Assembly: GCA_045599965.1 (NCBI GenBank)
Contig: JAZRXA010000036.1
Location: 1-24,000 of the forward strand
Source of the DNA: Lachnospiraceae bacterium
GTDB lineage: Bacteria; Bacillota; Clostridia; Lachnospirales; Lachnospiraceae
DNA: 24,000 nt
Direction of reading: 5' to 3'
The translations under genes were made by a program, and so were the position numbers. Shown in pieces: positions 2,822-22,672 of this stretch (position 1 is its first letter; every line of letters begins with the position of its first letter). Under the pieces are notes generated by a model. That model did not search any database. It was not told the DNA's origin and saw only the letters and a program-made list of their open reading frames with translations.

Positions 2822-5089
2822 TTACAGTTCACTACGGATAATCTTTCCGCTGGATGTTTTTGGAAGAGATTTCTTGAATTCAACGATACGCGGATATTTG
2901 TAAGGAGCTGTATGTTCTTTTACATAATTTTGTATTTCTTCTTTCAGTTTTTCAGTTCCTCTCTTGCCAGCAACCAAAACGATACTAGCTTTAACAATCT
3001 GTCCACGGATTTCATCCGGTACTGCAGAAACGCCACATTCAAGAACGTAAGGGAGTTCCATAATAACGCTTTCGATTTCGAAAGGTCCGATACGGTATCC
3101 AGAGGATTTGATTAGGTCATCTGCTCTGCCGATGTACCAGAAGAATCCATCTTCATCGCACCATGCCAAATCACCGGTATGGTAATAGCCATCATGCCAT
3201 ACAGCATCAGTGTCTTTATCGTTTTGATAGTAGCCAGCAAACAAACCGCATGGTGCGCCATCAGAAATATCAATACAAATTTCACCAGCTTCACCGACTT
3301 CGGCAAACTTTCCTTCTGAAGTAAGTAAAGCAACTTTATACTGAGGGTTCGGTTTACCCATAGAACCAATCTTTGGTGCAACACCCGCAAAGTTACCAAC
3401 AACAACGCAAGTTTCGGTCTGACCGAAGCCTTCCATAACGGATAAGCCAGTGTTTTCCATGAAAATACGGAAGATTTCCGGATTCATAGCTTCGCCAGCA
3501 GTACTTACATGTTTGATAGAACTTAAATCATATTTGCTAAGGTCTTCTTTGATCAGCATACGGAACATAGTAGGCGGAGCACAGAAGGTAGTAATACCAT
3601 ACTGCGCAAACATTGGAAGAATATCACTAGCCTGGAAGCGGTCAAAGTCGTAAACGAAAAGAGGAGCTTCGCATAACCACTGTCCAAAGAGTTTCCCCCA
3701 CATAGCTTTTGCCCAACCAGTATCAGAAATGGTAAAGTGCAGACCGTTTGGATCTACGCAATGCCAATATTTCGCAGTAACGAAATGTCCCAGAGGATAT
3801 TTGCAGTTATGAACTGCAAGTTTCGGATAACCGGTGGAACCGGAAGTAAAAATCATCATCATTGGGTCACTGCCGGAAATGCTGTCTTCCTTTCTTGCAA
3901 AACGGCTAGAGTACATAGCGTACTCTTCGTCGAAAGAATGCCAGCCTTTGCATGTTCCGTTGGCAACAATCTTTAATTCAATCTTTCCGTATTTCTTTAT
4001 GGCAGGTTCTGCCTGTTTAATTACATCACCGTCTGCAGAGCAAATAACTGCAGAAACGCCAGCAACTTCAAAACGGTAAAGGAAATCTTTCTCTAACAAC
4101 TGATCAACTGCAGGAATTGCAATTGCACCTAATTTCTCCAGACCAATAATAATCGGCCAGAACTGCCAGTTTCTTCTTAAAACGACTAATACACGGTCGC
4201 CCTTCTTGATTCCTAAAGAACTAAAGTAGTTGGCAGCACGGGAAGAAAGTTTTGCCATATCCTGGAAGGTTAAGCGTTTTTCTACTTTATCGTTGTTTAC
4301 ATGAAGAAGCGCTAATTTCTCTGGACGACGGGAACCTAATGCATCTACTACGTCGAATGCAAAATTGAAAGATTCAGGATCCTTGAAATGAACAGCAGAT
4401 ATTTCGCCAGTAGCGGTTTCTTCCACTTCCACAAATTTTTCCCAAACGCGTTTTTTTGTTTGAATGACTGGAACAATCGTCGGAATAGTTTCTGGCTTCG
4501 CAACCGCGTTTCTATCTGGATCAAGAACAATAGCATAGAAATCACAATCGCCCCCATTAGTAGCAATCATTCCGTGAGGAGTAGAGGAGTTATAATAAAT
4601 TGTATCGCCAGGGCCTAATACTTCGGTATGGTTTCCCAATTGAACTTTTAAGTGACCACGTATAACAATATCAAATTCATGTCCTTCATGGACAGTAACT
4701 TCGATTGGTTTGAGTTGAGCCTCTGCACTGAATGTACTGTGTACAAACAAAGGCTCAGCAACACGGTCACGGAATTTATAAGCTAGATTGTAATAGGTCA
4801 TGCCATGAGCCTGTTCAACACGAAGGCCTTCGCCTTTACGGGTCATGATATAAGAATTTAATCGAGGAGTGATACCTTCGATTAATTCGGTAACGTCAAC
4901 ATTTAAGACCTGGGCACAGGTGTAAAGGAATGCGAAATCCAGTTCCTGTTTTCCGGATTCATATAACTTGTATTCATCGACGGTTACGCCGATTTTCTGA
5001 GCCATGTATTCTTCAGATAAATCTTCAATCGTTCTTAGTTCACGGACACGATCCGCAATTTCTTGTACTTTTAATTCTAATCCATTCAT
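2822..5089 (-). CDS. Triple fusion: XRE-family HTH + cupin + AMP-forming medium-chain (MACS/ACSM-like) acyl-CoA synthetase, 755 aa (paralog 1)
   Basis: AGGAGA SD 6 nt before the ATG. N-terminal HTH_3-like segment: AQKIGVTVDEYKLYESGKQELDFAFLYTCAQVLNVDVTELIEG. Cupin motifs: VHEGHEFDIVIRG and GPGDTIYYNSSTPHGM. Ligase part: FNFAFDVVD (ACSM-type entry) plus core motifs TSGSTGYPK, GFGQTE, YHTGDLA, GRADDLIKSSGYRIGPFEIESV and PKTSSGKIIR. Confidence 0.85.
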   Translation of the reverse strand: MNGLELKVQEIADRVRELRTIEDLSEEYMAQKIGVTVDEYKLYESGKQELDFAFLYTCAQVLNVDVTELIEGITPRLNSYIMTRKGEGLRVEQAHGMTYYNLAYKFRDRVAEPLFVHSTFSAEAQLKPIEVTVHEGHEFDIVIRGHLKVQLGNHTEVLGPGDTIYYNSSTPHGMIATNGGDCDFYAIVLDPDRNAVAKPETIPTIVPVIQTKKRVWEKFVEVEETATGEISAVHFKDPESFNFAFDVVDALGSRRPEKLALLHVNNDKVEKRLTFQDMAKLSSRAANYFSSLGIKKGDRVLVVLRRNWQFWPIIIGLEKLGAIAIPAVDQLLEKDFLYRFEVAGVSAVICSADGDVIKQAEPAIKKYGKIELKIVANGTCKGWHSFDEEYAMYSSRFARKEDSISGSDPMMMIFTSGSTGYPKLAVHNCKYPLGHFVTAKYWHCVDPNGLHFTISDTGWAKAMWGKLFGQWLCEAPLFVYDFDRFQASDILPMFAQYGITTFCAPPTMFRMLIKEDLSKYDLSSIKHVSTAGEAMNPEIFRIFMENTGLSVMEGFGQTETCVVVGNFAGVAPKIGSMGKPNPQYKVALLTSEGKFAEVGEAGEICIDISDGAPCGLFAGYYQNDKDTDAVWHDGYYHTGDLAWCDEDGFFWYIGRADDLIKSSGYRIGPFEIESVIMELPYVLECGVSAVPDEIRGQIVKASIVLVAGKRGTEKLKEEIQNYVKEHTAPYKYPRIVEFKKSLPKTSSGKIIRSEL

Positions 5090-5106
5090 AGTTAGTCTCC
5101 TATTTA

Positions 5107-5160
5107 TTGCAATAGATTACGTTGGAACGTTTGTTGTAGTTTTTTACAACAGATTACGTT
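5107..5160 (-). repeat. Imperfect 17-bp direct repeat (15/17) at the junction of the two ligase-fusion paralogs
   Basis: Plus strand: TTGCAATAGATTACGTT (5107-5123) and TTACAACAGATTACGTT (5144-5160), 37 bp apart. The second copy forms the last codons and stop of the upstream paralog (..KRNLL*). The first copy is intergenic, just upstream of the paralog-1 SD. Confidence 0.6.
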
Positions 5161-7438
5161 TAATCTTACCGTTCGTTGTCTTTGGCAGATCATCCTTAAA
5201 ATCAATAATTCGAGGATATTTATAAGGAGCCGTACGACTTTTAACGTAGTTCTGAATTTCAATTTTTAATTCATCAGAAGGAACAGTTCCTTTTACAAGA
5301 ACGATGCTTGCCTTAACAACCTGTCCTCGGATTTCGTCAGGAGCAGCAGATACACCACACTCTAAGACATAAGGAAGTTCCATAAGTACGCTTTCGATTT
5401 CGAAAGGTCCAATACGGTATCCAGAAGATTTGATGACATCGTCTGCACGACCTACATACCAGAAGTATTCGTCCTCATCGCGCCATGCCAAGTCTCTAGT
5501 ATGATAATAATTATCATGCCATACATCAGCAGTAGCTTCCGGTTCTTCGAAATAGCCTTTGAACAAACCGCAAGGAATGCCATTGCCTGTGTAGATAACG
5601 ATTTCTCCTACTTCACCATCCGCACATTCTTCGCCATCTGCATTAAGAAGATGAACATCGTAGAGCGGACTTGCTTTACCCATGGAGCCAGGTTTTGTCA
5701 TCATTCCGGCAAAGGTACCGATAACCATGGTAGTTTCCGTTTGTCCAAAGCCTTCCATAATAGAAAGACCGGTAGCCTTGCGGAATTGTTCGTAAACTTC
5801 TGGATTCATGGCTTCGCCAGCGATGCTTGCATGTTTCACTGAGCTTAAGTCATATTTGCTGAGGTCCTCTTTGATGAAGAAACGGTACATCGTAGGAGGA
5901 GCACAAAAAGAAGTAATATGATATTGAGCGAACAAAGATAAAATATCGTCCGCATGGAAACGGTCAAAGTCATAAACGAAAGAAGCAGCGCCGTTCATCC
6001 ACTGGCCATAGAGTTTGCCCCAAAGAGCCTTGCCCCATCCAGTATCGGAGATGGTTAGGTGAAGGCCTTCTGGATCCACACAATGCCAGTACTTCGCAGT
6101 CAGGTAATGACCTAACGGATATTTGCAACTGTGAATAGCAGCCTTCGGATAGCCAGAGGTTCCGGAGGTGAAGAGCATGAGCATAGAATCATCACCAGAG
6201 ATAGAATCTTCAGTTCTTACAAAACGGCTAGAATACATATCGTATTCTTCGTCGAAACAATGCCAGCCTTCGCGTTTACCACCGCTGATTATTTTGAGTT
6301 TAACAGTAGGGCATTTCGCAGCAGCTTTTTCTGCCTCGTCTGCACTGGTTCCGAATGCAGCACATACAATTGCTTTTACTTTTGCTGCATTAAACCTATA
6401 TTCAAAATCTTTTTCTACTAATTGGTCAGTTGCAGGAATTGCAATAGCGCCTAATTTATGAAGGCCTATGATTACTGGCCAAAATTCCCAGTTTCTGCGC
6501 ATAACCAGCATTACGCGGTCACCTTTTTCCACACCCAAAGCACGGAAATAGTTCGCAGCTCTTGCAGACATTTTTTTCATGTCAAAGAAAGTGAAGCGTC
6601 TTTCTTTGCGGTTACGGTCTAAATGAACCATAGCAAGACGGTCTGGGTCTTTATCAGCAATTGCATCCACAACATCGAATGCAAAATTGAATTTATCTGG
6701 ATTAGTGAATTTGATGGAAACTGGAGCACCAGTTTCGCTGGTTGCAGTTTCAATGAAATCATTCAGGTAATCGCCGACAGAAACAATAGCAGGAACACTG
6801 TTAAGGTGTTTTTGTACTTCTTCTGCATTCATCATGCGACCATGGTTCCAAATCAGTTCTTCTTCGCCACTTAAAATAACGGCGCAAAAAACAACATCTT
6901 TTCCGCCAATAGCAATCATACCGTGAGGAGTGGAAGAGTTATAGAAGATGCTGTCGCCAGGTCCTAATTCTTCTTCATGATCACCAATCTTAATTCTCAT
7001 GCTACCTTCTAGAACAAGGTCAAACTCTTGACCACCATGTGTTACTTGATGAATCGGCTCATTTTGTTCTGCTTCTGAGTATTCATAACGAACCCAATAA
7101 GGGTCTGCTTTTTTATTTTTAAACAGAGGAGCGATAGACTTAATTTCGATGCCAGGCTCTTTTGCCGTAAGCTGGCCATTGCCGTTACGGGTAATTGCAT
7201 AGCTAGTAAGTCGGGAATTACTTCCTTCTAAAAGTTCGGTAATTTCAATACCAAAACATTGCGCACATTTATGAATAAATGTGAAAGGAAGGTCTGCAGC
7301 TCCCGTTTCATATTGGATGTATTCTTCAGTGCTGATGCCGGTAAGTTCCGCCATATTGGCTTCTGTGTAGTTATAGTCAATTCGAAGCTCACGAATACGT
7401 TGCGCAACTTCCATCAACATATTACTGTTGTCTGCCAT
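5144..7438 (-). CDS. Triple fusion: XRE-family HTH + cupin + AMP-forming medium-chain (MACS/ACSM-like) acyl-CoA synthetase, 764 aa (paralog 2)
   Basis: Same architecture as 2822-5089. HTH: AELTGISTEEYIQYETGAADLPFTFIHKCAQCFGIEITELLEG. Cupin: THGGQEFDLVLEG, GPGDSIFYNSSTPHGM. Ligase: FNFAFDVVD, TSGTSGYPK, GFGQTE, YHTRDLA, GRADDVIKSSGYRIGPFEIESV, PKTTNGKIKR. I placed the start at the ATG (complement of 7436-7438) preceded by GGAGGAG, rather than the tracked TTG at 7459. Confidence 0.85.
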   Translation of the reverse strand: MADNSNMLMEVAQRIRELRIDYNYTEANMAELTGISTEEYIQYETGAADLPFTFIHKCAQCFGIEITELLEGSNSRLTSYAITRNGNGQLTAKEPGIEIKSIAPLFKNKKADPYWVRYEYSEAEQNEPIHQVTHGGQEFDLVLEGSMRIKIGDHEEELGPGDSIFYNSSTPHGMIAIGGKDVVFCAVILSGEEELIWNHGRMMNAEEVQKHLNSVPAIVSVGDYLNDFIETATSETGAPVSIKFTNPDKFNFAFDVVDAIADKDPDRLAMVHLDRNRKERRFTFFDMKKMSARAANYFRALGVEKGDRVMLVMRRNWEFWPVIIGLHKLGAIAIPATDQLVEKDFEYRFNAAKVKAIVCAAFGTSADEAEKAAAKCPTVKLKIISGGKREGWHCFDEEYDMYSSRFVRTEDSISGDDSMLMLFTSGTSGYPKAAIHSCKYPLGHYLTAKYWHCVDPEGLHLTISDTGWGKALWGKLYGQWMNGAASFVYDFDRFHADDILSLFAQYHITSFCAPPTMYRFFIKEDLSKYDLSSVKHASIAGEAMNPEVYEQFRKATGLSIMEGFGQTETTMVIGTFAGMMTKPGSMGKASPLYDVHLLNADGEECADGEVGEIVIYTGNGIPCGLFKGYFEEPEATADVWHDNYYHTRDLAWRDEDEYFWYVGRADDVIKSSGYRIGPFEIESVLMELPYVLECGVSAAPDEIRGQVVKASIVLVKGTVPSDELKIEIQNYVKSRTAPYKYPRIIDFKDDLPKTTNGKIKRNLL

Positions 7439-7467
7439 TTTTTCTCCTCCGAGGGGCAAATTTCTTC

Positions 7468-7478
7468 ATTACTGTAAT
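7468..7478. promoter_or_regulatory. Perfect palindrome ATTAC-T-GTAAT in the predicted 5' leader of the ligase-fusion operon (candidate operator)
   Basis: ATTACTGTAAT reads identically on both strands. It lies between the predicted minus-strand -10 box (7510-7515) and the paralog-2 SD (about 7445-7451). Confidence 0.3.
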
Positions 7479-7509
7479 TTAATTCTATTTCGCCATCCTA
7501 AACTATTAA

Positions 7510-7538
7510 ATAATAATGAAAATTTTATTTGCAGTCAA
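7510..7538 (-). promoter_or_regulatory. Sigma-A type promoter for the two HTH-cupin-ligase genes
   Basis: Minus strand reads TTGACT (complement of 7533-7538), 17-nt spacer, TATTAT (complement of 7510-7515). This gives a leader of about 65 nt to the ATG at 7438. Confidence 0.45.
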
Positions 7539-7622
7539 TAGAAAAATTGCACAAAGTAAACGACGAAAACCTATTTTTAGCAAGGCATTTCGCTTATTTT
7601 TACCAAAGAAAAAAGTAATTCG

Positions 7623-7651
7623 TTGACTGTAAGAAAAAGTGGGTTTATAAT
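7623..7651 (+). promoter_or_regulatory. Sigma-A type promoter for the 10-gene OFOR/ligase/ilvE/PFOR operon
   Basis: TTGACT (7623-7628), 17-nt spacer, consensus TATAAT (7646-7651). This gives a leader of about 100 nt to the ATG at 7757. It is divergent from the minus-strand promoter, with the two -35 boxes about 85 bp apart. Confidence 0.6.
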
Positions 7652-7756
7652 CTCCAAAAGCAAAGGATTCTGCCTTGCAGAGACTTTGTTTCTATTTTGT
7701 ATCCTCTTATAGGTTTTGAGGGTTTCTTTTCGTGTATTTGAGGGAAGAAAAATAAG

Positions 7757-8461
7757 ATGAATGCTTTTTTAAAAGCCATGGCCGAGGGCCCAAGAAAAAT
7801 TGCAATTACGGGTCATTTTGGAAGTGGCAAAACAGAGGTCAGCGTATCTCTTGCCACGGCCTTAGCAAAAGAAAATATTCCAAACTTGGCGTTATGCGAT
7901 CTGGATCTTGAAAATCCCTATTTTCGTTCCAGAGAACGACAAAGCCTGATGGAGGCTTCGAAAATCAAAGTTTATTCCGATCCTTTCAAAGGAAAGAATG
8001 GAAGCGAACTTCAGACCATCGATGCAGCTATTAGGGCGCCTTTGGAAGATGAAACTTGCAGAGTCATCTTAGATTGCGGAGGAGATGCTACGGGAGCCAT
8101 GATTTTAAATCAATTCAGCCCGTATATGAAAGAGGATGCTCAGCTAATCAGCGTTGTAAATTGTAACCGTCCGGGAACTAATACACCGCAAAAAGCTGCT
8201 GATCAGATAAACAATACGATGGAAACTACCGGAATAAAAGTTACGGGTATCATATCCAATGCGCATCTGATTCGCTACACAACAGCCCAAACCGTAATGG
8301 ATGGCATGGAATTTACTAAAGAGGTTTCGCGCCTTACGGGCATCCCGGTACTTTGTGCATGTTGTATGGAAAGCCTAGTAGAAGAACTTTCCGGTTGTGA
8401 TTTTGATATTTTCCCGATTGGAATGTACATGAGGGATAGTTATTTAGATAAAAAGGTTTAA
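7757..8461 (+). CDS. Uncharacterised P-loop NTPase (SIMIBI-like), first gene of the OFOR operon
   Basis: Canonical Walker A ITGHFGSGKTE near the N-terminus. A candidate Walker B/switch is RVILDCGGDATG. The layout loosely recalls G3E/MinD-type maturation NTPases (compare UreG liESGGDNL), but the NKxD position reads SNAH. No confident family assignment is possible by eye. Confidence 0.6.
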   Translation: MNAFLKAMAEGPRKIAITGHFGSGKTEVSVSLATALAKENIPNLALCDLDLENPYFRSRERQSLMEASKIKVYSDPFKGKNGSELQTIDAAIRAPLEDETCRVILDCGGDATGAMILNQFSPYMKEDAQLISVVNCNRPGTNTPQKAADQINNTMETTGIKVTGIISNAHLIRYTTAQTVMDGMEFTKEVSRLTGIPVLCACCMESLVEELSGCDFDIFPIGMYMRDSYLDKKV

Positions 8462-8490
8462 AAACCATAAAAATATTCAGGAGGCTTGCA

Positions 8491-8721
8491 ATGAAGAGAC
8501 GTTTTAAAGTCGTTTTCGATGGAGACAAATGCAAAGGCTGTGGCTTATGCATTTCCTTCTGCCCAAAAAAAATCCTTGCCTTTGACCCGGAGGTTAATTC
8601 CAAAGGATATCATCCGGCAGGAATCACAGATGTAACAGAGTGCATCGGCTGCACAAGTTGTGCGACCATGTGCCCAGATTGCTGCATCAGTATTTATGAA
8701 TTAGAGGAGAAAGAAGAATGA
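8491..8721 (+). CDS. 2-oxoacid:ferredoxin oxidoreductase delta subunit (2x[4Fe-4S] ferredoxin)
   Basis: Two CxxCxxCxxxCP-type motifs: CKGCGLCISFCP and CIGCTSCATMCP. 76 aa, AGGAGG SD. Its stop overlaps the next start (ATGA at 8718-8721). Confidence 0.85.
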   Translation: MKRRFKVVFDGDKCKGCGLCISFCPKKILAFDPEVNSKGYHPAGITDVTECIGCTSCATMCPDCCISIYELEEKEE

Positions 8722-9794
8722 GTAAAGTACTTATGAAGGGCAATGAAGCCTTTGGAGAAGCTGCAATACGTGCCGGCTGTAAGTGCTATTTCGGCTATCC
8801 TATTACACCACAGAACGAAGTTCCTGAGTATATGAGCCATGAACTGCCAAAGGCAGGTGGCGCATTTGTACAGGCAGAAAGCGAACTGGCTGCTGTTAAC
8901 ATGGCCTATGGTGCTGCAGCTGCAGGCGGTCGTGTATTTATTTCCACGAGTTCTCCAGGTCTTGCTTTAATGCAGGAAGGACTTGGATTTATATGCAGTA
9001 CGGAAGTTCCAATCGTTGCTCTAAATGTATCCAGAGGCGGCCCTGGTGTAGGTGGTATCCAGCCAGGTCAAGCAGACTATTTCCAGGCAACTAGAGGTGG
9101 CTACAATGGTGACGCTAAAATTCCGGTTTTCGCACCTTCAGGAATTCAAGAATGCGTTGACATGATTTATGAAAGTTTCGATATTGCTGAGAAATACCGT
9201 AACCCGGTACTCATTCTTGCAGACGGCATGATTGGACAGATGATGGAACCGGTAGAACTTCCACCACAAAAGGAAATTACCCCAGTTAACCAAATCAGCG
9301 AAAAGAAACCATGGGCAATCACCGGAACTGATAATCATGACGGAAGAAACGTTATTTTCTCGCTACGTTTGGTACCGGATGTATTAGAGTCTCATGTCGA
9401 GCATATGTTTGAGAAATACGAAGAAGCAGAAAAGGAACTGGTTCGTTACAGTTCTATGAATTTGGAAGATGCAGAAATCGTATTTGTTGCTTTCGGAACC
9501 ATGTCCCGCTTATGCGCAGAAGCCATTGAGATTCTAGAGGAACGCGGTATTAAAGCTGGATTGATTCGTCCAATCAGCTTATGGCCATTTCCAGATAAAG
9601 CCTTTGAAGAAATCGGTCCAAAGACAAAAGTTGTTATTTCAACCGAGCTTAGCATGGGCCAGATGATTCAGGACGTTAAGGCAGCAATAAGCGGTCGTTT
9701 ACCTGTAAGACTGATTAACCGTACAGGCGGAATTGTTCCGTCCTCTCTTGAAATTGCTGACAGAGCAATCAAACATTTGGAGGAGCTGAAATGA
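8718..9794 (+). CDS. 2-oxoacid:ferredoxin oxidoreductase alpha subunit (VorB/KorA/OorA type)
   Basis: LMKGNEAFGEAAIRAGCKCYFGYPITPQNE, QAESELAAVNMAYGAAAAGGR and TSSPGLALMQE are typical for OFOR alpha. 358 aa. Translationally coupled on both sides. Confidence 0.85.
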   Translation: MSKVLMKGNEAFGEAAIRAGCKCYFGYPITPQNEVPEYMSHELPKAGGAFVQAESELAAVNMAYGAAAAGGRVFISTSSPGLALMQEGLGFICSTEVPIVALNVSRGGPGVGGIQPGQADYFQATRGGYNGDAKIPVFAPSGIQECVDMIYESFDIAEKYRNPVLILADGMIGQMMEPVELPPQKEITPVNQISEKKPWAITGTDNHDGRNVIFSLRLVPDVLESHVEHMFEKYEEAEKELVRYSSMNLEDAEIVFVAFGTMSRLCAEAIEILEERGIKAGLIRPISLWPFPDKAFEEIGPKTKVVISTELSMGQMIQDVKAAISGRLPVRLINRTGGIVPSSLEIADRAIKHLEELK

Positions 9795-10534
9795 AAACTA
9801 TATTTGAACCAACAAAGGGAATGCTCCCTGTAGATACAAGCTATTGTCCAGGATGTTCTCATGGTATTGCACATCGTCTTATCATGGAAGTTTTGGAAGA
9901 AAGAGGAGATTTAGGACGCACCATCGGTGTTGTTCCAATCGGATGCTCTATTAATGCTCATAACTTCATGAACATTGATATGTGCGAGTCCACTCACGGA
10001 AGAGCTCCTGCTATTGCAACAGGCATACGTCGCGTTCACCCAGATAAAGTTGTTTTTACTTATCAGGGCGATGGAGACTTAGCTTCCATTGGTGCTGGTG
10101 AAATTGTTCATGCAGCTCATAGAGGCGAGAAGTTTACTACATTCTTTATTAACAATGCGATTTACGGTATGACAGGTGGACAGATGGCTCCTACTACTTT
10201 GATTGGTCAGAGAGCTACTACTGCTGTTAATGGACGTACCATTGAGCAGGCCGGCCTTCCTTTAAAAGTCTGCGAAATGCTATCAACCATTCCTGGCGCA
10301 GTATTTGTAGAAAGAGTAATTTTGAACACTCCTGCAAATGTAAGAAAAGCAAAGAAAGTTATTGAGAAAGCATTTGATATTCAAGAAGCAAAACTAGGTT
10401 TCACCTTTATTGAATTCCTTTCTGCATGTCCTACGAACTGGGGAATGTCACCAGAAGACGCATTAAAATGGGTTGCTTCAGATATGGCAGAATATTATCC
10501 AGTCCAAAATTTTAGAACTCCGGAGGGCTTTTGA
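9791..10534 (+). CDS. 2-oxoacid:ferredoxin oxidoreductase beta subunit (TPP and Fe-S binding)
   Basis: N-terminal CPGCSHG motif. The TPP-binding segment is YQGDGDLASIGAGE...NNAIYGMTGGQ. 247 aa. Confidence 0.85.
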   Translation: MKTIFEPTKGMLPVDTSYCPGCSHGIAHRLIMEVLEERGDLGRTIGVVPIGCSINAHNFMNIDMCESTHGRAPAIATGIRRVHPDKVVFTYQGDGDLASIGAGEIVHAAHRGEKFTTFFINNAIYGMTGGQMAPTTLIGQRATTAVNGRTIEQAGLPLKVCEMLSTIPGAVFVERVILNTPANVRKAKKVIEKAFDIQEAKLGFTFIEFLSACPTNWGMSPEDALKWVASDMAEYYPVQNFRTPEGF

Positions 10535-10536
10535 TT

Positions 10537-11067
10537 ATGAAGATGAAAATGTTTTTTGCCGGTAGTGGTGGCCAGGGAACCTTAGCAATCGGCCAAATGA
10601 TTGCAAAAGCAGCAATGGAAGAAGGAAAAGAAGTAACTTGGCTTCCTTCATATGGACCGGAAATGCGTGGTGGTACGGCAAACTGTACAGTTGTTGTTTC
10701 GGACAAGCCAATTAGTTGTCCGTTAATCAACACCGCAGATATGTTAGTAACGATGAACTTGCCATCTCTTGTTAAATTTGAGCCAATCGTTGTTCCAAAC
10801 GGACTGATTATGATTAATAGCTCTTTAGTTAGCATTGATACATCTAGAAGTGATGTAAAATCTGTAAAAGTTGCAGCAAACGATATTGCTGCAGAGCTGG
10901 GAAACGAAAAAGCAGCCAATATGATTATGTTGGGTGCCATTTTGAATGAGACTCATGTTGTAGAACCGGATACTATCCGCAAAGAAATCGAGCATATGTT
11001 CTCAGGCCCTAAGGAAAAATTCCTTGCCATGAACATGGAAGCTTTTGAACATTACCTTACAAAATAG
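10537..11067 (+). CDS. 2-oxoacid:ferredoxin oxidoreductase gamma subunit
   Basis: FAGSGGQGTLAIGQMIAKAA and SYGPEMRGGTANCTVV are typical for OFOR gamma. I placed the start at the in-frame ATG at 10537, 9 nt after GGAGGG (10522-10527), rather than the tracked TTG at 10531. Confidence 0.8.
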   Translation: MKMKMFFAGSGGQGTLAIGQMIAKAAMEEGKEVTWLPSYGPEMRGGTANCTVVVSDKPISCPLINTADMLVTMNLPSLVKFEPIVVPNGLIMINSSLVSIDTSRSDVKSVKVAANDIAAELGNEKAANMIMLGAILNETHVVEPDTIRKEIEHMFSGPKEKFLAMNMEAFEHYLTK

Positions 11068-11085: not shown

Positions 11086-12498
11086 ATGAAAAACATCCAT
11101 ATCAGTGACGTTACATTAAATACAGCACTTGATTCTGGGCGCAATGCCCTGAATTTTCGCGAGAAAATTGAGATCGCGAAGTTGTTAGATCGACTAGATG
11201 TGGATGTTATCGAAGCTGGGGCAATTGTAAATGAAAAGACCGATAGCCTATTAATAAAGGCAATCTCTACCGCGGTAAAAACTTCTTGTATTGCGGTACT
11301 TGTTGACCCAGAAGATAAAGAAAGTGTAGCAAAGGTACATGCTGCGCTGAAGGATGCTCCTTCTTATAGAATGCAGGTGGTAATACCTGTAAGTACGGTA
11401 CAGATGGAATACATTTGTCATAGAAAACCGGCAGCTGTATTAGAATTGATAAAAGAGTCTGTAAGCGAGTGCAAACAGTATGCAGAAAATGTAGAGTTTA
11501 TCGCAGAAGATGCAGTACGCAGCGATCAAGATTTTCTATTCACAGCTATAGATGTGGCTTTAGAAGCAGGGGCAAATGTAATTACAGTCTGTGACGCAGA
11601 AGGAAGCTTGCTTCCAAGTGAAGTATTTGAAAAAATTTCGGACATACGTAAAAAAGTACCGGAGAATGTAACTTTGGGAGTTCGTTGCGCAAATGATCTT
11701 TATATGGCTACCGCTAGTTGTGCAGCTGCTATCCGTGCAGGCGCAGATGAAATCAAGACATGTGCCGGCGGTATAAAGACAACCGAATTAGATAAAATCG
11801 TAGCAGTACTTTCTTCTAGAGGAGACAGCTTAAATGCATTCACCAACGTTAAGACTACAGAAATGCAACGAGTAATTTCTAAAATTCATGAAATCTGCGA
11901 AACTACTCGTTCAGACCATTCACCATTTGATTTTGGCGTTCGTGAAGAAGAAGGCATATTCCTAACTGCGAAGGATGATATGGCAGCAGTTACTCAGGCT
12001 GCAAAACAGCTAGGCTACGAGTTAAGTGATGAAGACGCAGTAAGTGTTTATAATGCGTTTGTTCATATCGCAGAAAAAAAAGAGCAAGTTGGCCAAAGAG
12101 AATTAGATGCCATCATTGCATCTGCAGCAATGCAGGTTCCTGCAACATATTCTATTGAAAATTATATTATTAACTCGGGAAACAAAATTACTGCAAGTGC
12201 CCATATGAAATTAGTCAAAGATGGTAAAGTTTTAGAAAGCGTTTGCCTTGGTGATGGTCCAATCGATGCTGCGTTCCTAGCAATCGAGCAAATTTTGGGA
12301 AGACATTTTGAACTGGATGATTTCCAAATTAAATCTGTAACCGAAGGACATGAGGCGATGGGTGAAACTGTCGTACGTCTTCGTTCTGGCGGAAAGCTTT
12401 ATTCCGGACGAGGCATCTCTACCGACATTATTGGTAGCGGCATTCGCGCTTACATTAATGCAGTTAATAAAATTGTCTTCGAGGAGGAAGAAAAATGA
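11086..12498 (+). CDS. 2-isopropylmalate synthase-like protein (HMGL-like TIM barrel + LeuA regulatory domain) with degenerate active site; predicted non-catalytic
   Basis: The N-terminus aligns to the LeuA IFDTTLRDGEQSPG...VDIIEAG motif but reads ISDVTLNTALDSGR...VDVIEAG. The HxH metal motif (VHCHNDLG) reads VRCANDLY (R200/C201/A202, nt 11683-11691). The C-terminal domain keeps LeuA_dimer hallmarks: GDGPIDAAFLAIEQI, HEAMGETVVRL, GRGISTDIIGSGIRAYINAVNK. Confidence 0.75.
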   Translation: MKNIHISDVTLNTALDSGRNALNFREKIEIAKLLDRLDVDVIEAGAIVNEKTDSLLIKAISTAVKTSCIAVLVDPEDKESVAKVHAALKDAPSYRMQVVIPVSTVQMEYICHRKPAAVLELIKESVSECKQYAENVEFIAEDAVRSDQDFLFTAIDVALEAGANVITVCDAEGSLLPSEVFEKISDIRKKVPENVTLGVRCANDLYMATASCAAAIRAGADEIKTCAGGIKTTELDKIVAVLSSRGDSLNAFTNVKTTEMQRVISKIHEICETTRSDHSPFDFGVREEEGIFLTAKDDMAAVTQAAKQLGYELSDEDAVSVYNAFVHIAEKKEQVGQRELDAIIASAAMQVPATYSIENYIINSGNKITASAHMKLVKDGKVLESVCLGDGPIDAAFLAIEQILGRHFELDDFQIKSVTEGHEAMGETVVRLRSGGKLYSGRGISTDIIGSGIRAYINAVNKIVFEEEEK

Positions 12499-14972
12499 GA
12501 CTTACCTTCTCAGCAAGAGGGTGGCACAGTCTTTCCTGGCAGGAACTGATTGATACTACCTTAGAAAATAAATATGAAGGGCTGGAGCTTTACAACGTGC
12601 ATAAATATGATGCACTAGTTGGAAAGGGCGGTCCTTTAAATGAATATAATATTCAGGCAACGTCTCGGTTTTTAAGAAACAATAAACTGACCGTTCCATG
12701 TATTGATACCTCTTTGGATATCAGCTCTGACAGTAAAGAGGTTATGAGCTGCATTCTTGAAACTATTAAAATTGCAGCTGCGCTGAAAAGTCCTTATGTT
12801 GCTGTGAAAGCGAAGGCCGATGCAGAAGAGCAAGTTTATGCTAACGTTGAAAAGATTTTGCCGGAAGCAGAACGTTTAGGAATTACACTTTTGATTTCTA
12901 CGAAAGGAATCTATGCGGATTCTGCAAAACTACGTAGTCTGATGAACTTTTTTGCAAATGATAATCTTGCAGTTTTATGGGATTCTTTGCATACCTACCG
13001 AGATAAAAAGGAAACTCCGGCAAATACCATTACCAATCTCGGAGCTTATGTGAAACATGTTCATTTAAGAGACTTAAACGATGATGGAACCTATAACCTT
13101 CCAGGCGAAGGAGCTTTCCCAATTGATGATTTAATGAGAGCCTTAGGCTCAGTAGACTATAATGGATTTATTTCTCTGGTTTGGAAACCGGAATATATCA
13201 GCGAGATTACGAATCCGGGAATTGTATTGCCATTCTTTAGCAACTACATGAACCGTTTTGGTGATACCCGTGGCAAGAAGCCAACACTGTATCTAAATCA
13301 TGACGGAAGCGGTCAGTATGTTTGGAAAAAAGATGAATTAATTTCTCTTACTTTTTCTCAGATTCTTGACCGTATGGCTTATGAATTTCCAGATCAGTAT
13401 GCCTTCCGTTATACGACCTTGGACTATACTCGCACCTATCGCGAGTTTAAAGAAGATGTTGACCGCTTCGCCCGTGCTCTAATGAGTTTGGGTGTGAAGC
13501 ATGGATATAAAGTTGCCGTATGGGCAACAAACATTCCTGCCTGGTATATTGCATTCTGGGCAGCAGCAAAAATCGGTGCCGTTTTGGTAACCGTAAATAC
13601 AGCCTATAAAATTCATGAGGCAGAGTATTTATTAAGACAGTCAGATACTCATACTCTGATTATGATTGATGAATGCAAAGACTCAAATTACAAAGAAATT
13701 ATTAACGAACTTTGTCCGGAAATTAAAAAGTCGAAGCCTGAAAAACCGTTACATTGTAAGGCTCTTCCGTTCTTAAGAAATGTAATTACGGTAGGCTTTT
13801 CTATGCCGGGCTGCTTAACCTTTGAGCAGGCTATGGACTGCTGTGAAAATGTTTCTCCTCATGAACTGGCAAAAATGGCAGCAGAGGTTGAGGTAAATGA
13901 TGTAGTAAATATGCAGTATACCTCTGGCACCACGGGTTTTCCGAAGGGAGTTATGCTGACTCACTATAACGTAGTAAATAACGGAAAATGTATTGGAGAC
14001 CGACTGGGACTTTCTACAGCGGACCGTATGATGATTCAGGTACCGATGTTCCATTGCTTTGGGATGGTACTTTCTATGACCGCCTCCATGACTCATGGGA
14101 CCACACTTTGTCCACTTCCATATTTTTCTGCAAAGAGTTCTTTGGCTTGCATAAATCAGGAAAAGATTACTTGCTTTAATGGCGTTCCGACCATGTTTAT
14201 TGCAATGTTTAATCATCCAGATTACAAAAAGACCGATTTTTCCCATATGAGAACAGGCATTATGGCGGGTGCTGGATGTCCTCCGGAACTGATGCGACGT
14301 GCGGCAAGAGACGACGAAATGCATATGAGCGGTATTGTTTCGGTTTATGGCCAAACCGAGTCCGCTCCGGGAAATACAATGTCTTCATGGACAGACCCAT
14401 TGGATAAGAGATGCGATACCGTTGGTAATGCGTTCCCACATATTCAGTGTAAGATTATCGATCCGGAGACCGGAGAAATTCTCCCACCAGGACAAAATGG
14501 TGAATTTTGTTCCAGAGGCTATAACACTATGAAGGGATATTATAAAATGCCAGATGCGACGGCAGCTGCAATAGATGCCGATGGATGGCTTCATTCAGGT
14601 GACTTAGCTTGCTGTGACGAAAATGGCTATTATAAGATTACCGGTCGTCTAAAAGACATGATTATTCGTGGCGGTGAAAACATCTATCCGAAGGAAATCG
14701 AGGAATTCATTTATACCCATGAAGATGTTCAAGATGTTCAGGTAATAGGTGTTCCGGATAAGACTTATGGCGAAGAAGTTATGGCTTGCGTCATCGCAAA
14801 AGAAGGAAGCGACTTAACTAAGGAGAAGCTTCGTGAATATATTACTAAGCGGCTGGCTCGCCATAAAGTTCCGAAATACATTGAATTAATGGACGAGTTT
14901 CCAATGAATGCGGCGGGAAAAGTTTTGAAATATAAGATGAGAGAAGATGCAGCAAAAAGGCTAGGTCTTTAA
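12495..14972 (+). CDS. Fusion: xylose-isomerase-like (AP_endonuc_2) TIM barrel + AMP-forming acyl-CoA ligase (ACSF2/YngI/FadD-like), 825 aa
   Basis: N-terminal ~260 aa show the pattern YEGLELY, IAAALKSPYVAV, LGITLLIST, LAVLWDSLHTY, VKHVHLRD, YNGFISLVW. C-terminal ~560 aa carry YTSGTTGFPKGVMLTH, VYGQTES, LHSGDLA, GRLKDMIIRGGENIYPKEIEE and the catalytic-Lys motif AAGKVLKYK. ATGA overlap with the upstream gene. Confidence 0.8.
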   Translation: MRLTFSARGWHSLSWQELIDTTLENKYEGLELYNVHKYDALVGKGGPLNEYNIQATSRFLRNNKLTVPCIDTSLDISSDSKEVMSCILETIKIAAALKSPYVAVKAKADAEEQVYANVEKILPEAERLGITLLISTKGIYADSAKLRSLMNFFANDNLAVLWDSLHTYRDKKETPANTITNLGAYVKHVHLRDLNDDGTYNLPGEGAFPIDDLMRALGSVDYNGFISLVWKPEYISEITNPGIVLPFFSNYMNRFGDTRGKKPTLYLNHDGSGQYVWKKDELISLTFSQILDRMAYEFPDQYAFRYTTLDYTRTYREFKEDVDRFARALMSLGVKHGYKVAVWATNIPAWYIAFWAAAKIGAVLVTVNTAYKIHEAEYLLRQSDTHTLIMIDECKDSNYKEIINELCPEIKKSKPEKPLHCKALPFLRNVITVGFSMPGCLTFEQAMDCCENVSPHELAKMAAEVEVNDVVNMQYTSGTTGFPKGVMLTHYNVVNNGKCIGDRLGLSTADRMMIQVPMFHCFGMVLSMTASMTHGTTLCPLPYFSAKSSLACINQEKITCFNGVPTMFIAMFNHPDYKKTDFSHMRTGIMAGAGCPPELMRRAARDDEMHMSGIVSVYGQTESAPGNTMSSWTDPLDKRCDTVGNAFPHIQCKIIDPETGEILPPGQNGEFCSRGYNTMKGYYKMPDATAAAIDADGWLHSGDLACCDENGYYKITGRLKDMIIRGGENIYPKEIEEFIYTHEDVQDVQVIGVPDKTYGEEVMACVIAKEGSDLTKEKLREYITKRLARHKVPKYIELMDEFPMNAAGKVLKYKMREDAAKRLGL

Positions 14973-15023: not shown

Positions 15024-16097
15024 ATGGAAATTAGAATTGAAAAGAACCCTAATCCGGCTCAAAAACCTACAGATGAAAGCAAACTTGGTTTTGGCAAAAT
15101 ATTTACAGACCACATGTTTGTTATGGATTGGTACAAAGGAAAAGGTTGGGAAGATGCTAGAATCATTCCTTTTGGAAACCTTAGCGTGCATCCAGCATCA
15201 ACAGTTTTTCATTATGCCGTTGAAATTTTTGAAGGCCTAAAGGCTTATCGTGCAGCAAATGGAAGTATCCGTTTGTTCCGTCCAATTGAAAATGCAAGAC
15301 GTATGAACAACTCTGCAATCCGTATGGCAATGCCTACGATTCCAGAAGAAGATATTGTTCAGGCAATCGAAACCTTAGTAACCATCGACAAAGACTGGGT
15401 TCCTCATGAAGATGGAACAAGCCTTTACATTCGTCCATTTATGATTGGTGATGATGAGCACCTTGGCGTACATGGTATTTCTCACGCTCGTTTCATGATT
15501 ATTCTTAGCCCATCTGGAGCTTACTACCCAGAAGGAATGGCTCCTGTAAAGATTATGATTGAAGACGAAGACGTTCGTGCCGTACGTGGTGGTACAGGCT
15601 TCACAAAATGCGGTGGAAACTATGCAGCATCTCTTCGTGCCGGAGACCGTGCAGAAGAAAAAGGCTTCACACAGGTTCTGTGGCTGGATGGCGTAGAAAG
15701 AAAATATATCGAAGAAGTTGGAGCTATGAACATCATGTTCAAGATTAACGGAAAAGTAGTTACTCCGGAACTGAATGGTTCTATACTTCCTGGAATTACC
15801 CGTAAGAGTATCTTAGAACTTCTTCGTAATAATGGCGCAGACGTAGAGGAAAGAAAAATCAGTATTGATGAAGTTATTGAAGCTGCAGAAAACGGAGGCT
15901 TGGAAGAAGTTTGGGGCTGTGGAACCGCAGCAGTTGTTTCTCCAGTAGGCTGGCTTGCTTTTGAAGATAAGATGTTCTGCATCAACAACGGAGAAATCGG
16001 CGAATTAACACAAAAACTTTATGACGAACTCACAGCAATTCAATGGGGCAAAAAAGAAGATCCATTCGGATGGACCTATACACTAGTTGAGGAATAA
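15024..16097 (+). CDS. ilvE: Branched-chain amino acid aminotransferase (fold type IV, long form)
   Basis: FGKIFTDHMF, YAVEIFEGLKAYR, LYIRPFMIG, the PLP-lysine context GGTGFTKCGGNYAASL and GITRKSILEL. GGAGGA SD (15012-15017). Confidence 0.9.
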   Translation: MEIRIEKNPNPAQKPTDESKLGFGKIFTDHMFVMDWYKGKGWEDARIIPFGNLSVHPASTVFHYAVEIFEGLKAYRAANGSIRLFRPIENARRMNNSAIRMAMPTIPEEDIVQAIETLVTIDKDWVPHEDGTSLYIRPFMIGDDEHLGVHGISHARFMIILSPSGAYYPEGMAPVKIMIEDEDVRAVRGGTGFTKCGGNYAASLRAGDRAEEKGFTQVLWLDGVERKYIEEVGAMNIMFKINGKVVTPELNGSILPGITRKSILELLRNNGADVEERKISIDEVIEAAENGGLEEVWGCGTAAVVSPVGWLAFEDKMFCINNGEIGELTQKLYDELTAIQWGKKEDPFGWTYTLVEE

Positions 16098-19100: not shown

Positions 19101-19595
19101 TCGAAAGCTACTCCTCTTGGCGCAGTTGCACAGTTTGCATCTGCAGGCAAGGGCACCGGCAAGAAAGACTTAGGCGCAATTATGATGAGTTATGGAAATG
19201 TGTATGTAGCTCAGGTAGCCATGGGTGCAAATCCAAACCAGTTGATTAAAGTCTTAAAAGAAGCTGAAGAATTTGATGGACCTTCTGTAATCGTTGCTTA
19301 CACTCCATGTACGGCTCATGGAATTAAATCTGGAATGTGCTCAGCACAGCAAGAGATGAAGAAAGCGGTTCAAAGTGGATATTTCAATCTATATCATTAT
19401 GATCCAAGATTAGAGCATCCAATGAAAGTGGATAGTGCACAGCCAACCCTTTCCTATCAGGACTTCTTAAGCGGAGAAGTTCGTTATGAGTCCTTGAAGA
19501 CAACCTTCCCAGAGAGAGCTAAAGAACTGTTTGGCGAAGCAGAAGAAGCAGCGAAACAAAAATATGAGAAATATAAGCAATTAGAATTGCAGTAA
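16101..19595 (+). CDS. nifJ: Pyruvate:ferredoxin (flavodoxin) oxidoreductase, single-polypeptide PFOR
   Basis: 1164 aa. AAIYPITPSSPMA, GLGGDGTVGANHN, ferredoxin domain CLQCNLCSFVCPHAAIRP / CTGCGSCVSVCP, and TPP domain GGDGWAYDIGFGGLDH...DTEVYSNTGGQ. The start is 3 nt after the ilvE stop, with the SD inside ilvE. Confidence 0.92.
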   Translation: MAKEMITVDGNTATADIAYEFSEVAAIYPITPSSPMAGSTDAWSANGRKNMFGQQVKLVEMQSEAGAIGAVHGALQTGALAVTYTSSQGLMLMIPTLYRIVGERLPAVLHVAARTVGTHGMSIFGDHSDVMACRQTGAALLSSGSVQEAAEIAAVAHLSALKGSTPFIHFFDGFRTSHELCRIEAPDKKALAALMDKEALKRFRRYALNPEHPMLRNTVQNDDVFFQTREAANHFYNDLPGIVEKYLHEVNKICGRNYELFNYYGDPEATDVIVAMGSVSGTVCEVVDWLRSQGRKVGYVQVHLYRPFSIKHFLKALPETVQRIAVLDRTKEPGASGEPLYQDICTSLMGSERKISVIGGRYGLSSKDTDPSQIAAVFNNLAKENPIKGFTIGINDDVTHLSLENAKMDGFNPGNIRLAKFWGLGGDGTVGANHNTVQILGDCANMYSQAYFQYDAKKSFGVTKSHLKFSPEPIRGSYYVKSADFVACHNQSFISQFDIVDEIKPGGIFLLNCDLKDEELESIIPGKARRLLAQNDIHFYTINATKIADELGLGSHTNTVLQAAFFALTNLIPLDEALGEMKKAAQTTYAAKGEEVIQKNIDAIDAGANALHKVEIPKSWFQAEDDPAPDESALPEVVRKILFPVNRQKGDDIPVSTFIGREDGVIEFGLTAFEKRGIAVHIPNWDAEKCLQCNLCSFVCPHAAIRPYLLNEEEVQNAPEGYSTVPAKGADGLHFTVKISTYDCTGCGSCVSVCPKEGALKMEPANLKEEDKVAWEYGLNLSDKGDVFNLYSVKGSQFKQPLVEFSAACAGCGETPYAKLLTQLFGDRIYWANGTGCSQAWGAPMPQIPYTVNKDGRGPAWTNSLFENNAELTLGMYLSVSQQRDAQKARINQLIEMAQGELKEACIKFIDAFDNFEESRKTADAVIKLLENEVDKGNTLIDEIYDNKDYMSKKTFWMYGGDGWAYDIGFGGLDHVIATGLNINCFVIDTEVYSNTGGQSSKATPLGAVAQFASAGKGTGKKDLGAIMMSYGNVYVAQVAMGANPNQLIKVLKEAEEFDGPSVIVAYTPCTAHGIKSGMCSAQQEMKKAVQSGYFNLYHYDPRLEHPMKVDSAQPTLSYQDFLSGEVRYESLKTTFPERAKELFGEAEEAAKQKYEKYKQLELQ

Positions 19596-19738: not shown

Positions 19739-19824
19739 ATGATACATGATGGGGGCAATTGTACTTTTTTTAAAAAGAGCCCAAAGACAGAAAAAAATTA
19801 GCATGAAATATTATGGAGGTGCGT

Positions 19825-20133
19825 ATGGCACAAGAAGTAATTAAAAATATAAAAGAAGCAGAGCTTAAGGCGAAAGAGACACTTGCTAATGCTGAAAAAG
19901 AAAAACAAGAAATTCTAGACAAAGCAGCCGAAGATGCAAAAACTTTGAAAAAAGATATTTTAGACAAAGCTAAAAAGCAGGCTCAAAAAAAGCTCGACAA
20001 AATTGAGGCTACTAGCGAAGCGGCTATGGAAGAGGCTCAAAAGAATGCCGAAGCAGTTATCAAGCAGTTCGAGAAAAACGCTAAAGCGAAAAAAGAAAAA
20101 GCTATCAAAGCTGTAATCGAAACAATCGCTTAA
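19825..20133 (+). CDS. V-type ATPase small peripheral-stalk subunit (G-like; positional equivalent of Enterococcus hirae NtpF)
   Basis: 102-aa Lys/Glu/Ala-rich coiled-coil protein (AQEVIKNIKEAELKAKETLANAEKEKQEILDKA...) immediately upstream of subunit I. I placed the start at the ATG at 19825, 4 nt after GGAGGT (19815-19820). The tracked ATG at 19813 overlaps the SD. Confidence 0.65.
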   Translation: MAQEVIKNIKEAELKAKETLANAEKEKQEILDKAAEDAKTLKKDILDKAKKQAQKKLDKIEATSEAAMEEAQKNAEAVIKQFEKNAKAKKEKAIKAVIETIA

Positions 20134-20168
20134 CTAGAATCACTTTCGTATATTAAGGAGGCTTAAAA

Positions 20169-22672
<2,504 letters not shown>

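Follow-up and report, generated by a model that had tools for sequence, protein, structure and literature searches.

Two tandem minus-strand genes in a 24,000-nucleotide stretch of a Lachnospiraceae genome (GenBank assembly GCA_045599965.1, contig JAZRXA010000036.1, positions 1 to 24,000; hereafter the window) raise the question of why an acyl-coenzyme A (CoA) ligase should carry, within the same polypeptide, a module that looks like a transcription factor. These genes, called A and B here, each encode a helix-turn-helix (HTH)-like domain and a cupin barrel, together referred to as the N-module, followed by a complete adenylate-forming ligase. The reading that we favor, to which we give a probability of about 45% as a whole, is that A and B are ligases for the salvage of branched acids and that the N-module is a metal-assisted sensor that tunes the ligase to which it is attached.

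Pfam recognizes the same four domains in each protein: HTH_3/HTH_19 at residues ∼13–72 (HTH_3 at 29.6 bits against a cut-off of 23 in A, HTH_19 at 33.1 bits against a cut-off of 30.2 in B), Cupin_2 at residues ∼130–187 (40.6 and 42.8 bits in A and B, respectively), AMP-binding (E = 8e-55 and 8e-61), and the AMP-binding_C lid (E = 3e-20 and 1e-18). An earlier note on this DNA had placed an HTH, a cupin, and a full-length adenylate-forming ligase in one polypeptide, which these matches confirm for both genes, and its by-eye identities between the paralogs (roughly two-thirds for the ligase and 40% for the HTH-cupin part) agree with computed values of 66 and 40%; the interdomain linker is 20% identical. 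The AlphaFold2 (AF2) model has five N-terminal helices followed by a beta-barrel (full-length predicted local distance difference test (pLDDT) score of 83.9, predicted template-modeling score of 0.65), with each domain predicted confidently and the linker at residues ∼190–230 at low confidence.

The same note held that all core ligase motifs are present, which is correct for A, where A3 ((T)SG(T/S)xGxPK), A5 (GFGQTE), motif III (YxxGD), A8 (GRxDDxxKxxGxxI), and A10 (PKTxxGKIxR, with the catalytic Lys) are complete, but not for B, where motif III reads YHTRD in place of YxxGD (G648R). Position 648 is Gly (codon GGA) in the six relatives that are at least 90% identical, so that Arg is confined to the window copy among the 7 members of this 90% cluster; Arg is also present at the equivalent position in 10 homologs from a separate, distant clade. 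The Arg could have arisen by mutation in this strain, could be a variant that is tolerated, or could stem from an error in sequencing. When the motif III Gly of Acs1Mt was changed to Ala, turnover (kcat) fell more than 200-fold (PMC3438747). A second change near motif III of B, G657E, is common to the close relatives, yet this position is Gly in 119 of 120 homologs.

The fusion is widespread. A frameshift or assembly error that made a separate N-module gene appear to be joined to the ligase, a possibility raised beforehand, is ruled out by the database relatives, as all 120 of the best-matching clusters (62–97% identity, from independent assemblies) have the same four domains in ∼750–780 residues, and the ligase is fused in 109 of 109 complete fused open reading frames (ORFs) from 80 species-level genomes. 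These 120 clusters are annotated just as "AMP-binding protein," "cupin domain-containing protein," or "acetyl-CoA synthetase." Run against genomes that each represent one species, a profile of the N-module detected the fusion in at least 580 species-level genomes. The best 80 of these carriers, which supply the loci compared for synteny below (labeled L001, L002, and so on), are all metagenome-assembled genomes of gut or rumen Clostridia, including Oscillospiraceae, Acutalibacteraceae, Christensenellaceae, Lachnospiraceae, and Faecousia.

An exhaustive search of representative genomes also recovered many genuine stand-alone HTH-cupin relatives of ∼185 residues (E = 1e-57 to 1e-37), which are acidic to the same degree as the fused module and keep its His/Glu/His triad (see below). 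Wherever the context of these genes can be read, the stand-alone HTH-cupin gene is followed in the same direction by a stand-alone ligase of the MACS (medium-chain acyl-CoA synthetase) type that is 48–53% identical to the ligase of B, with gaps of −4 nt (an ATGA overlap), 3 nt, 19 nt, and 74 nt; in one case (L088), the split pair adjoins a divergent P-loop–ferredoxin–VorB gene set in a layout like that of the window. The occurrence of the same pair in fused and split form argues for a direct functional partnership between the module and the ligase. Apparent stand-alone N-modules from a word-indexed search were nearly all fragments truncated by contig ends and were not used as evidence. At one split pair (L086), a perfect 7-2-7 palindrome, AAAGATT-TC-AATCTTT, lies at ∼3915–3930, 77 nt upstream of the stand-alone HTH-cupin gene (start at 4001), on a contig that has a Bacteroidota-style TAnnTTTG promoter motif; this single case could be a candidate operator for the stand-alone form.

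The acids that A and B activate can be predicted from characterized ligases, from the leaders of related genes, and from one residue of the acyl pocket. Over its full length, the ligase domain aligns with the Methanosarcina acetivorans enzyme MacsMa (PDB 3ETC; E = 3e-187) and has the core motifs in common with it, which, with the Pfam AMP-binding domains, supports the MACS-type assignment that had been made from the letters of the window. The acid favored by MacsMa is 2-methylbutyrate, and Trp259 of this enzyme has a critical part in handling the acyl substrate (PMC10455477); the equivalent Trp468 (B numbering) is invariant in the family, and the preference of MacsMa parallels the Ile T-box found on B-type genes. 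MacsMa differs from the fusions in having a short N-terminal extension without an HTH or cupin, and it is not known in a cluster with a branched-chain 2-oxoacid:ferredoxin oxidoreductase (Vor) and a branched-chain aminotransferase (BCAT), or behind a T-box. The best NCBIfam model for both proteins is MbcS of Staphylococcus aureus, at 407 bits (A) and 442 bits (B), far below the equivalog cut-off of 850. MbcS is reported to activate isobutyrate and 2-methylbutyrate (PMC10026030, PMC11167679); it is a single-module enzyme that feeds fatty acid synthesis, not amino acid synthesis.

Each fusion gene in the relatives is preceded by its own strong promoter (TTGACAAA-17-TGnTAtAAT) and then by a T-box, in upstream regions that show AATTTGAGTGGTACCGCG followed by a terminator hairpin. 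T-boxes switch a gene on when the cognate tRNA is uncharged and are a signature of biosynthesis or uptake. T-box leaders (RF00230) score above the gathering threshold directly upstream of B-like genes (L009, 9706–9939, and L058, 9711–9941, at 104.7 bits both) and before the LeuA-like genes of L009, L058, and L061, and Infernal alignment reads their specifiers as AUC (Ile) before the B-like genes and CUC (Leu) before the LeuA-like genes. The leader before the A-like gene of L009 (82.5 bits, E = 2e-18) has the specifier GUA (Val). In a survey that used a pattern validated against the Infernal alignments, ATC was present in 69 of 72 callable leaders of B-type genes, GTA or GTC in 33 of 37 leaders of A-type genes, and CTC or CTG (Leu) in 14 of 24 leaders of a third unit, in which a LeuA-like gene is paired with a ligase fused to a TIM barrel. 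Because a T-box induces its gene in response to uncharged tRNA, these specifiers mark the cluster as a set of amino acid supply genes and point to a biosynthetic role. The leaders are classical in form, as are those of the T-box-controlled branched-chain genes of other Firmicutes, but there the regulated genes are ilv/leu biosynthesis or tRNA synthetase genes, whereas in the relatives they are acid-activating ligases and a reductive carboxylase, and the window itself is without a T-box.

To locate the residues that separate the two types, 34 fusions with an Ile T-box were compared with 27 fusions with a Val T-box, which gave 15 positions that are conserved within each type and different between them. 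Gene B agrees with the Ile-T-box class at 14 of the 15 and has Gly469, and gene A agrees with the Val-T-box class at 11 of the 15 and has Ala460 at the equivalent position. This Gly (Ile-type) versus Ala (Val-type) position is the only one of the 15 in the ligase; it corresponds to an acyl-pocket position of acetyl-CoA synthetase, and a smaller Gly for a C5 acid and a larger Ala for a C4 acid would fit 2-methylbutyrate versus isobutyrate as substrates. At the level of sequence, the earlier proposal that the paralogs cover different acids is well supported by the Ile and Val specifiers together with this residue next to the acyl-pocket Trp. The other 14 positions lie in the N-module (six in the HTH-like domain, among them H56Y and K57R of its conserved patch, and eight in the cupin), so that the distinction between Ile and Val copies resides mainly there. 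Identity between the Ile and Val types is 0.42 in the HTH-like domain and 0.52 in the cupin, compared with 0.66 and 0.87 in the two ligase subdomains; within a type, the identity of the N-module (0.59–0.75) is near that of the ligase N-domain, which indicates strong constraint.

The genes around the fusions are conserved with them. By tblastn across the 80 loci, a cluster made up of [LeuA-like, TIM-ligase], [B-like fusion, A-like fusion], and [P-loop, ferredoxin, VorB, VorA, VorC, BCAT] recurs in dozens of genomes, with two tandem fusions in ∼45 of the 80 loci. In most loci the fusions are co-directional with the P-loop–Vor–BCAT genes and upstream of them; a divergent P-loop gene is found only in the window, L001, L002, L005, and L064. 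This conserved synteny backs the functional tie of the fusions to the neighboring Vor operon that the earlier note had suggested. The "OFOR operon" of that note (2-oxoacid:ferredoxin oxidoreductase) is divergent from the fusions as it stated, but is larger than described, as it also contains the P-loop, ferredoxin, LeuA-like, TIM-ligase, BCAT, and pyruvate:ferredoxin oxidoreductase (PFOR) genes.

It has long been known that isobutyrate, 2-methylbutyrate, and isovalerate are required or assimilated by many fiber-degrading Clostridia of the rumen and gut, which convert these acids to Val, Ile, and Leu by reductive carboxylation. The isovalerate-to-leucine route has been mentioned in the literature (PMC7356843). 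In the pathway that we propose for this locus, the ligases of A and B would turn a branched acid into its acyl-CoA in the first, ATP-consuming step; the adjacent ferredoxin-dependent VorBAC would carboxylate the acyl-CoA reductively to the 2-oxoacid, for which PFOR could supply the reduced ferredoxin; and the adjacent BCAT would transaminate the 2-oxoacid to the amino acid. B would thus serve the conversion of 2-methylbutyrate to isoleucine, and A that of isobutyrate to valine. The LeuA-like/TIM-ligase pair, which is kept in ∼35 related loci, may be the isovalerate-to-leucine arm. The P-loop gene lies directly upstream of the ferredoxin–VorBAC genes in nearly every related locus, and its product might assist Vor as an Fe-S factor or in maturation. 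In a common layout (e.g. L017, 12590–18132), the P-loop–ferredoxin–Vor–BCAT genes follow the Val-type ligase almost without a gap, and Vor expression therefore apparently needs read-through of the Val T-box even when Ile alone is limiting, which is a puzzle.

Whether the N-module still reads DNA bears directly on its role. The net charge of the HTH-like domain (residues 1–75) is −9 in both A and B and averages −7.2 in the family (range −11 to −2), compared with +4 for 434 cI and +1 for a PbsX-family HTH (aligned stretches) and −2 for Escherichia coli PuuR (residues 1–75). At the equivalents of the DNA contacts of the 434 repressor, which we take to be Q17, Q28, Q29, S30, K40, R41, and R43, the family has E/P/V/Q, L/V/E/P, E/D/A, D/E, an invariant D, L, and T/S, respectively, and PuuR has Q-R-R and T-H-S..S-T at the corresponding places. 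The polar or basic contact surface expected on helices 2 and 3 and the loop that follows is absent from the fusions, its equivalents being acidic, hydrophobic, or variable. The exposed positions of helix 3 are the least conserved of the domain, and the best-conserved patch, D49-L-P-F-T-F-I-H-K-C-A59, occupies the helix 3–4 loop and helix 4, away from helix 3. A search for operators by dyad enumeration (5-mers with spacers of 0–14) against shuffles, by 8-mer enrichment, and by information content aligned on the −35 element found no shared operator or palindrome in 73 B-type and 37 A-type promoter regions, which have only A/T tracts, the −35 element, an extended −10 element, and the leader start in common, and positions 7400–7800 of the window hold no inverted repeat. 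Known XRE-cupin factors bind 15–25-bp palindromes over promoters as dimers (PMC7901475, PMC12724383). The fusion module is like such factors (PuuR, PsdR, ErfA, PauR, and DbuR) in having an XRE HTH followed by a cupin, in the positions of its His/Glu/His residues (PuuR alignment), and in its metabolic gene neighbors; they are stand-alone proteins of ∼185 residues, whereas the module shares its polypeptide with a ligase or is translationally coupled to one, and has a strongly acidic HTH and no operator that we could find.

The cupin retains what would be a binding site. Its His134, Glu138, and His172 are invariant and align with the Fe(II) triad of HppE (H138/E142/H180). Because the repressor PuuR keeps the same triad, these residues point to metal-assisted ligand binding, not to catalysis, and we dropped them as evidence for an enzyme. 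An HTH-like alpha domain joined to a cupin is also found in the enzymes HppE, HEPD, MPnS, and Psf4, which set a precedent for putting an XRE-like domain to uses other than DNA binding.

In the model that we favor, the N-module would descend from an XRE-cupin regulator that has lost operator reading and would act as a metal-assisted small-molecule sensor, with a His134/Glu138/His172 pocket capped by the helix-4 patch (D49–A59), that tunes the ligase with which it shares a polypeptide. Such control would most plausibly be feedback specific to each paralog, with Ile or Val, or the corresponding 2-oxoacids, as effectors, since the ligase would catalyze the first ATP-consuming step. Transcription would be controlled separately, by the Ile-, Val-, and Leu-specific T-boxes in most lineages and by other means in the clade of the window, which has none.

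Several points weigh against this model. The role of the N-module is one that we infer throughout. The operator search presumed one shared palindromic site near the promoters, and negative charge lowers the likelihood of DNA binding without excluding it. The HTH scores above the Pfam thresholds, and its sequence is nearer to 434 cI, SinR, and a PbsX-family protein than to the alpha domain of HppE. The His/Glu/His triad is kept in a true repressor and thus does not discriminate between roles. The third ligase of the cluster bears a TIM barrel instead of an N-module, which is as compatible with an accessory role in catalysis as with one in regulation. The Arg648 substitution may, by analogy with Acs1Mt, make the window copy of B a poor enzyme. 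Finally, the loss of the T-boxes from the clade of the window leaves a gap in regulation for which an N-module that binds DNA would be a neat fit.

A different explanation is that A and B are trigger enzymes whose N-module, dimerized through the cupin, would occupy an operator and regulate the fusion genes and/or the Vor operon according to acid, acyl-AMP, CoA, or amino acid status, perhaps only in the T-box-less clade. We consider it unlikely. The HTH is indeed nearest to DNA binders of the 434 cI, SinR, and PbsX type, and the module has the architecture of XRE-cupin proteins that act as local repressors of adjacent metabolic genes. The concept is like that of BirA, an adenylating enzyme, PutA, and FadD1 of Pseudomonas aeruginosa, in each of which one polypeptide serves both catalysis and gene control; in those proteins DNA binding has been demonstrated, whereas in A and B the sequence evidence speaks against it. 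FadD1 is the precedent among acyl-CoA ligases, as it is reported to bind promoters (PMC12754631). Control of transcription was the headline of the earlier note, and that mechanism is probably wrong: it is weakened, although not refuted, by the charge of −9, by the acidic, hydrophobic, or variable contact positions and the poorly conserved helix-3 surface, by the lack of a shared operator in the 110 promoters, and by the T-boxes of the relatives.

The window itself is where this explanation has most to offer. Rfam finds no T-box there at the gathering threshold and none at E ≤ 5 within 5000–8800, nor anything else relevant in the window even at E ≤ 5. In the window, L001, and L002, all of the T-box leaders (Ile, Val, and Leu) are missing and the cluster has been rebuilt as two divergent operons: the spacer between B and A has shrunk to 54, 54, and 17 bp, respectively, from the 330–500 bp found elsewhere, and the LeuA-like/TIM-ligase pair is now inside the Vor operon, 18 nt after VorC. 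With the T-boxes lost, something else must regulate these genes. Promoter-like sites at 7623–7651(+) and 7538–7510(−), with 11/12 and 10/12 matches, are the two best σ70-like sites of the stretch that was scanned, and they stand back to back in the divergent 318-bp region, where the earlier note had also predicted both promoters. The block between them, AAAAATAAGCGAAATGCCTTG, is identical in the window, L001, and L002, as an operator might be, but these three loci are too close to one another for this identity to carry much meaning. The same region contains direct repeats TATTTTTAGCAA and TATTTTTACCAA at 7572–7583 and 7595–7606. A palindrome in the B-A spacer, ATTTATTGC/GCAATAGAT at 5102–5117, was rejected as an operator because it is not conserved in L001, and a CodY box (AATTTTCWGAAAATT, up to three mismatches) as the replacement for the T-boxes was rejected after 0 matches in the window against 4.2 expected.

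It is accordingly a narrower form of the claim that this locus keeps alive, mainly through the T-box gap: in the lineage of the window, the XRE-cupin module might bind 7439–7756 despite its acidic surface, which would make A and B genuine trigger enzymes for their own genes and the Vor–BCAT operon, with transcription set by whether acid, acyl-AMP, or amino acid occupies the ligase. We rate this, too, as unlikely, as the N-modules of the window conform to the family pattern, match the other members in acidity, and have regained no basic residues. If true, it would mean BirA-like logic in amino acid salvage, with riboswitch control replaced by an enzyme-regulator.

The conservation of the gene order, together with the location of the conserved patch, would also fit a purely structural role, in which the N-module oligomerizes through its cupin and holds the ligase to VorBAC or to the P-loop protein so that acyl-CoA is passed on directly. 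The fusion genes and the P-loop–ferredoxin–Vor genes are tightly co-located in nearly every locus, residues 49–59 form a conserved surface away from helix 3, the genes of the split pairs overlap or nearly do so, and the pirins of Bacteroides fragilis, which are cupin proteins, bind directly to PFOR (PMC11304471). A pure scaffold would have no need of an invariant His/Glu/His pocket or of pocket residues that differ by type in step with the Ile or Val T-box, and we regard this role as rather improbable.

A third possibility is that the cupin is itself catalytic, an HppE-like metallo-cupin that adds a step on the acid, acyl-AMP, or acyl-CoA, such as epimerization or proofreading hydrolysis. HppE, HEPD, MPnS, and Psf4 are among the top PDB matches of the N-module in both profile and fold comparisons, in which the facial triad aligns; in Foldseek these four rank at the top together with 1y9q, an uncharacterized "HTH_3 regulator." The Foldseek TM-scores are just 0.3–0.4, with an uncertain domain orientation, and cannot separate a regulator from an enzyme, and the HppE profile match is confined to the cupin stretch (E = 3e-06, compared with an i-Evalue of 39 for the HTH stretch). 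The sequence similarity of HppE, HEPD, and MPnS to the fusions is weak, and their O2-dependent phosphonate chemistry has no counterpart here. MacsMa mishandles noncognate acyl-AMPs (PMC10455477), and the TIM barrel of the third ligase is of an enzyme type. Set against these points, the triad is kept equally in PuuR, reactions of the HppE type need O2 and are implausible in strict gut anaerobes, and the route from acid to amino acid has no obvious gap; a catalytic cupin is, in our estimate, very doubtful.

Last, a catabolic or lipid-priming role, in which Vor oxidizes branched 2-oxoacids while the ligases run in reverse or prime membrane fatty acids as MbcS does, draws on the reversibility of Vor enzymes and on the supply of branched fatty acid primers by MbcS in S. 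aureus (PMC10026030), but it is highly improbable given the biosynthesis or uptake signature of the Ile, Val, and Leu specifiers, the co-clustered BCAT and LeuA-like genes, and MbcS scores that fall so far short of the equivalog cut-off.

On our preferred reading of A and B as salvage ligases with an attached sensor, the locus provides a concrete and widely conserved candidate gene set for a nutritional trait of gut and rumen Clostridia that is classic but has gone unexplained; the set consists of three dedicated ligases together with Vor, BCAT, and a P-loop protein as an accessory. As the specifier of the T-box ties each ligase to one amino acid in most species, substrate assignments, predictions of auxotrophy from metagenomes, and hypotheses on feed additives or probiotics become directly testable. 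A regulator-derived HTH-cupin that is fused to a ligase, or encoded by a gene overlapping that of the ligase, in hundreds of species would be either an exapted transcription-factor module or a new trigger enzyme, and in both cases the acyl-CoA synthetase family would gain a regulatory principle. The components are each known already. Our literature search, whose coverage was incomplete, found no paper on the fusion, on its split form, or on T-box control of ligase/Vor clusters, and no gene-level assignment of the branched-acid route for Clostridia; such absence is unproven, and this is also the answer to the question in the earlier note of whether the architecture is a well-characterized family.

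The features of the window are collected in Table 1. The start of gene B is placed at the ATG at 7438, which is preceded by a GGAGGAG ribosome-binding site (RBS); the listed ORF reaches an upstream TTG at 7459.

Table 1. Coordinates of the fusion genes, their parts, and neighboring features in the window
Feature	Position	Strand	Description	Basis
Gene B	5144..7438	−	764-residue Ile-type fusion; predicted 2-methylbutyrate–CoA ligase with N-terminal HTH-like/cupin module	ORF, RBS, Pfam
B HTH-like domain	7214..7438	−	Residues 1–75; five helices, net charge −9	Pfam HTH_19/HTH_3; AF2 helices 4–71, pLDDT ∼88–95
B cupin barrel	6863..7174	−	Residues 89–192; invariant H134/E138/H172	Pfam Cupin_2; HppE and PuuR alignments
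B ligase domain	5147..6706	−	Residues 245–764; MACS type	3ETC MacsMa, E = 3e-187; NCBIfam MbcS 442 bits (cut-off 850)
B Arg648 (codon AGA)	5495..5497	−	Motif III YHTRD; Gly expected	
B Gly469	6032..6034	−	Directly after acyl-pocket Trp468; sole ligase position splitting Ile-type (G) from Val-type (A)	
Gene A	2822..5089	−	755-residue Val-type fusion; predicted isobutyrate–CoA ligase with N-terminal HTH-like/cupin module	ORF, Pfam
A Ala460 (= B 469)	3710–3712	−	Val-type residue	
B-A spacer	5090..5143		54 bp; too short for the promoter and Val T-box (330–500 bp) of relatives	
Divergent control region	7439..7756		318 bp; promoter-like sites 7538–7510(−) and 7623–7651(+)	
P-loop NTPase-like gene	7757..8461	+	234 residues	Weak CbiA/ParA/NUBPL matches
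4Fe-4S ferredoxin	8491–8721	+	Divergent operon	
VorB	8718–9794	+		NCBIfam 479 bits (cut-off 399)
Thiamine pyrophosphate (TPP) beta subunit	9791–10534	+	Branched-chain 2-oxoacid:ferredoxin oxidoreductase	Pfam
Gamma subunit	10531–11067	+	Branched-chain 2-oxoacid:ferredoxin oxidoreductase	Pfam
LeuA-like gene	11086–12498	+	Divergent sequence	Below isopropylmalate synthase (IPMS) cut-off
Third ligase with N-terminal xylose-isomerase-like TIM barrel (AP_endonuc_2)	12495–14972	+	825 residues; start overlaps LeuA-like stop	
Branched-chain aminotransferase IlvE (BCAT)	15024–16097	+		NCBIfam 485 (cut-off 307)
PFOR	16101–19595	+		NCBIfam 1646 (cut-off 911)

Three further observations concern the surroundings of these genes. 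The last codons of gene B (…RNLL-stop) are duplicated in the B-A spacer as a 21-nt direct repeat with 86% identity (5103–5123 and 5140–5160), which may be a trace of the rearrangement by which the promoter and Val T-box that other species have here were lost. Directly after PFOR begins a V-type ATPase operon (subunits I, K/c, and E; 19813–23265, plus strand). Downstream of the fusions in the 97%-identical relative L001 (8061–13411) lies a Liv-type branched-chain amino acid ABC transporter (two BPD_transp_2, three ABC_tran, and one Peripla_BP_6), and at this place the window has dCMP deaminase, RpiB, and TsaC-like genes.

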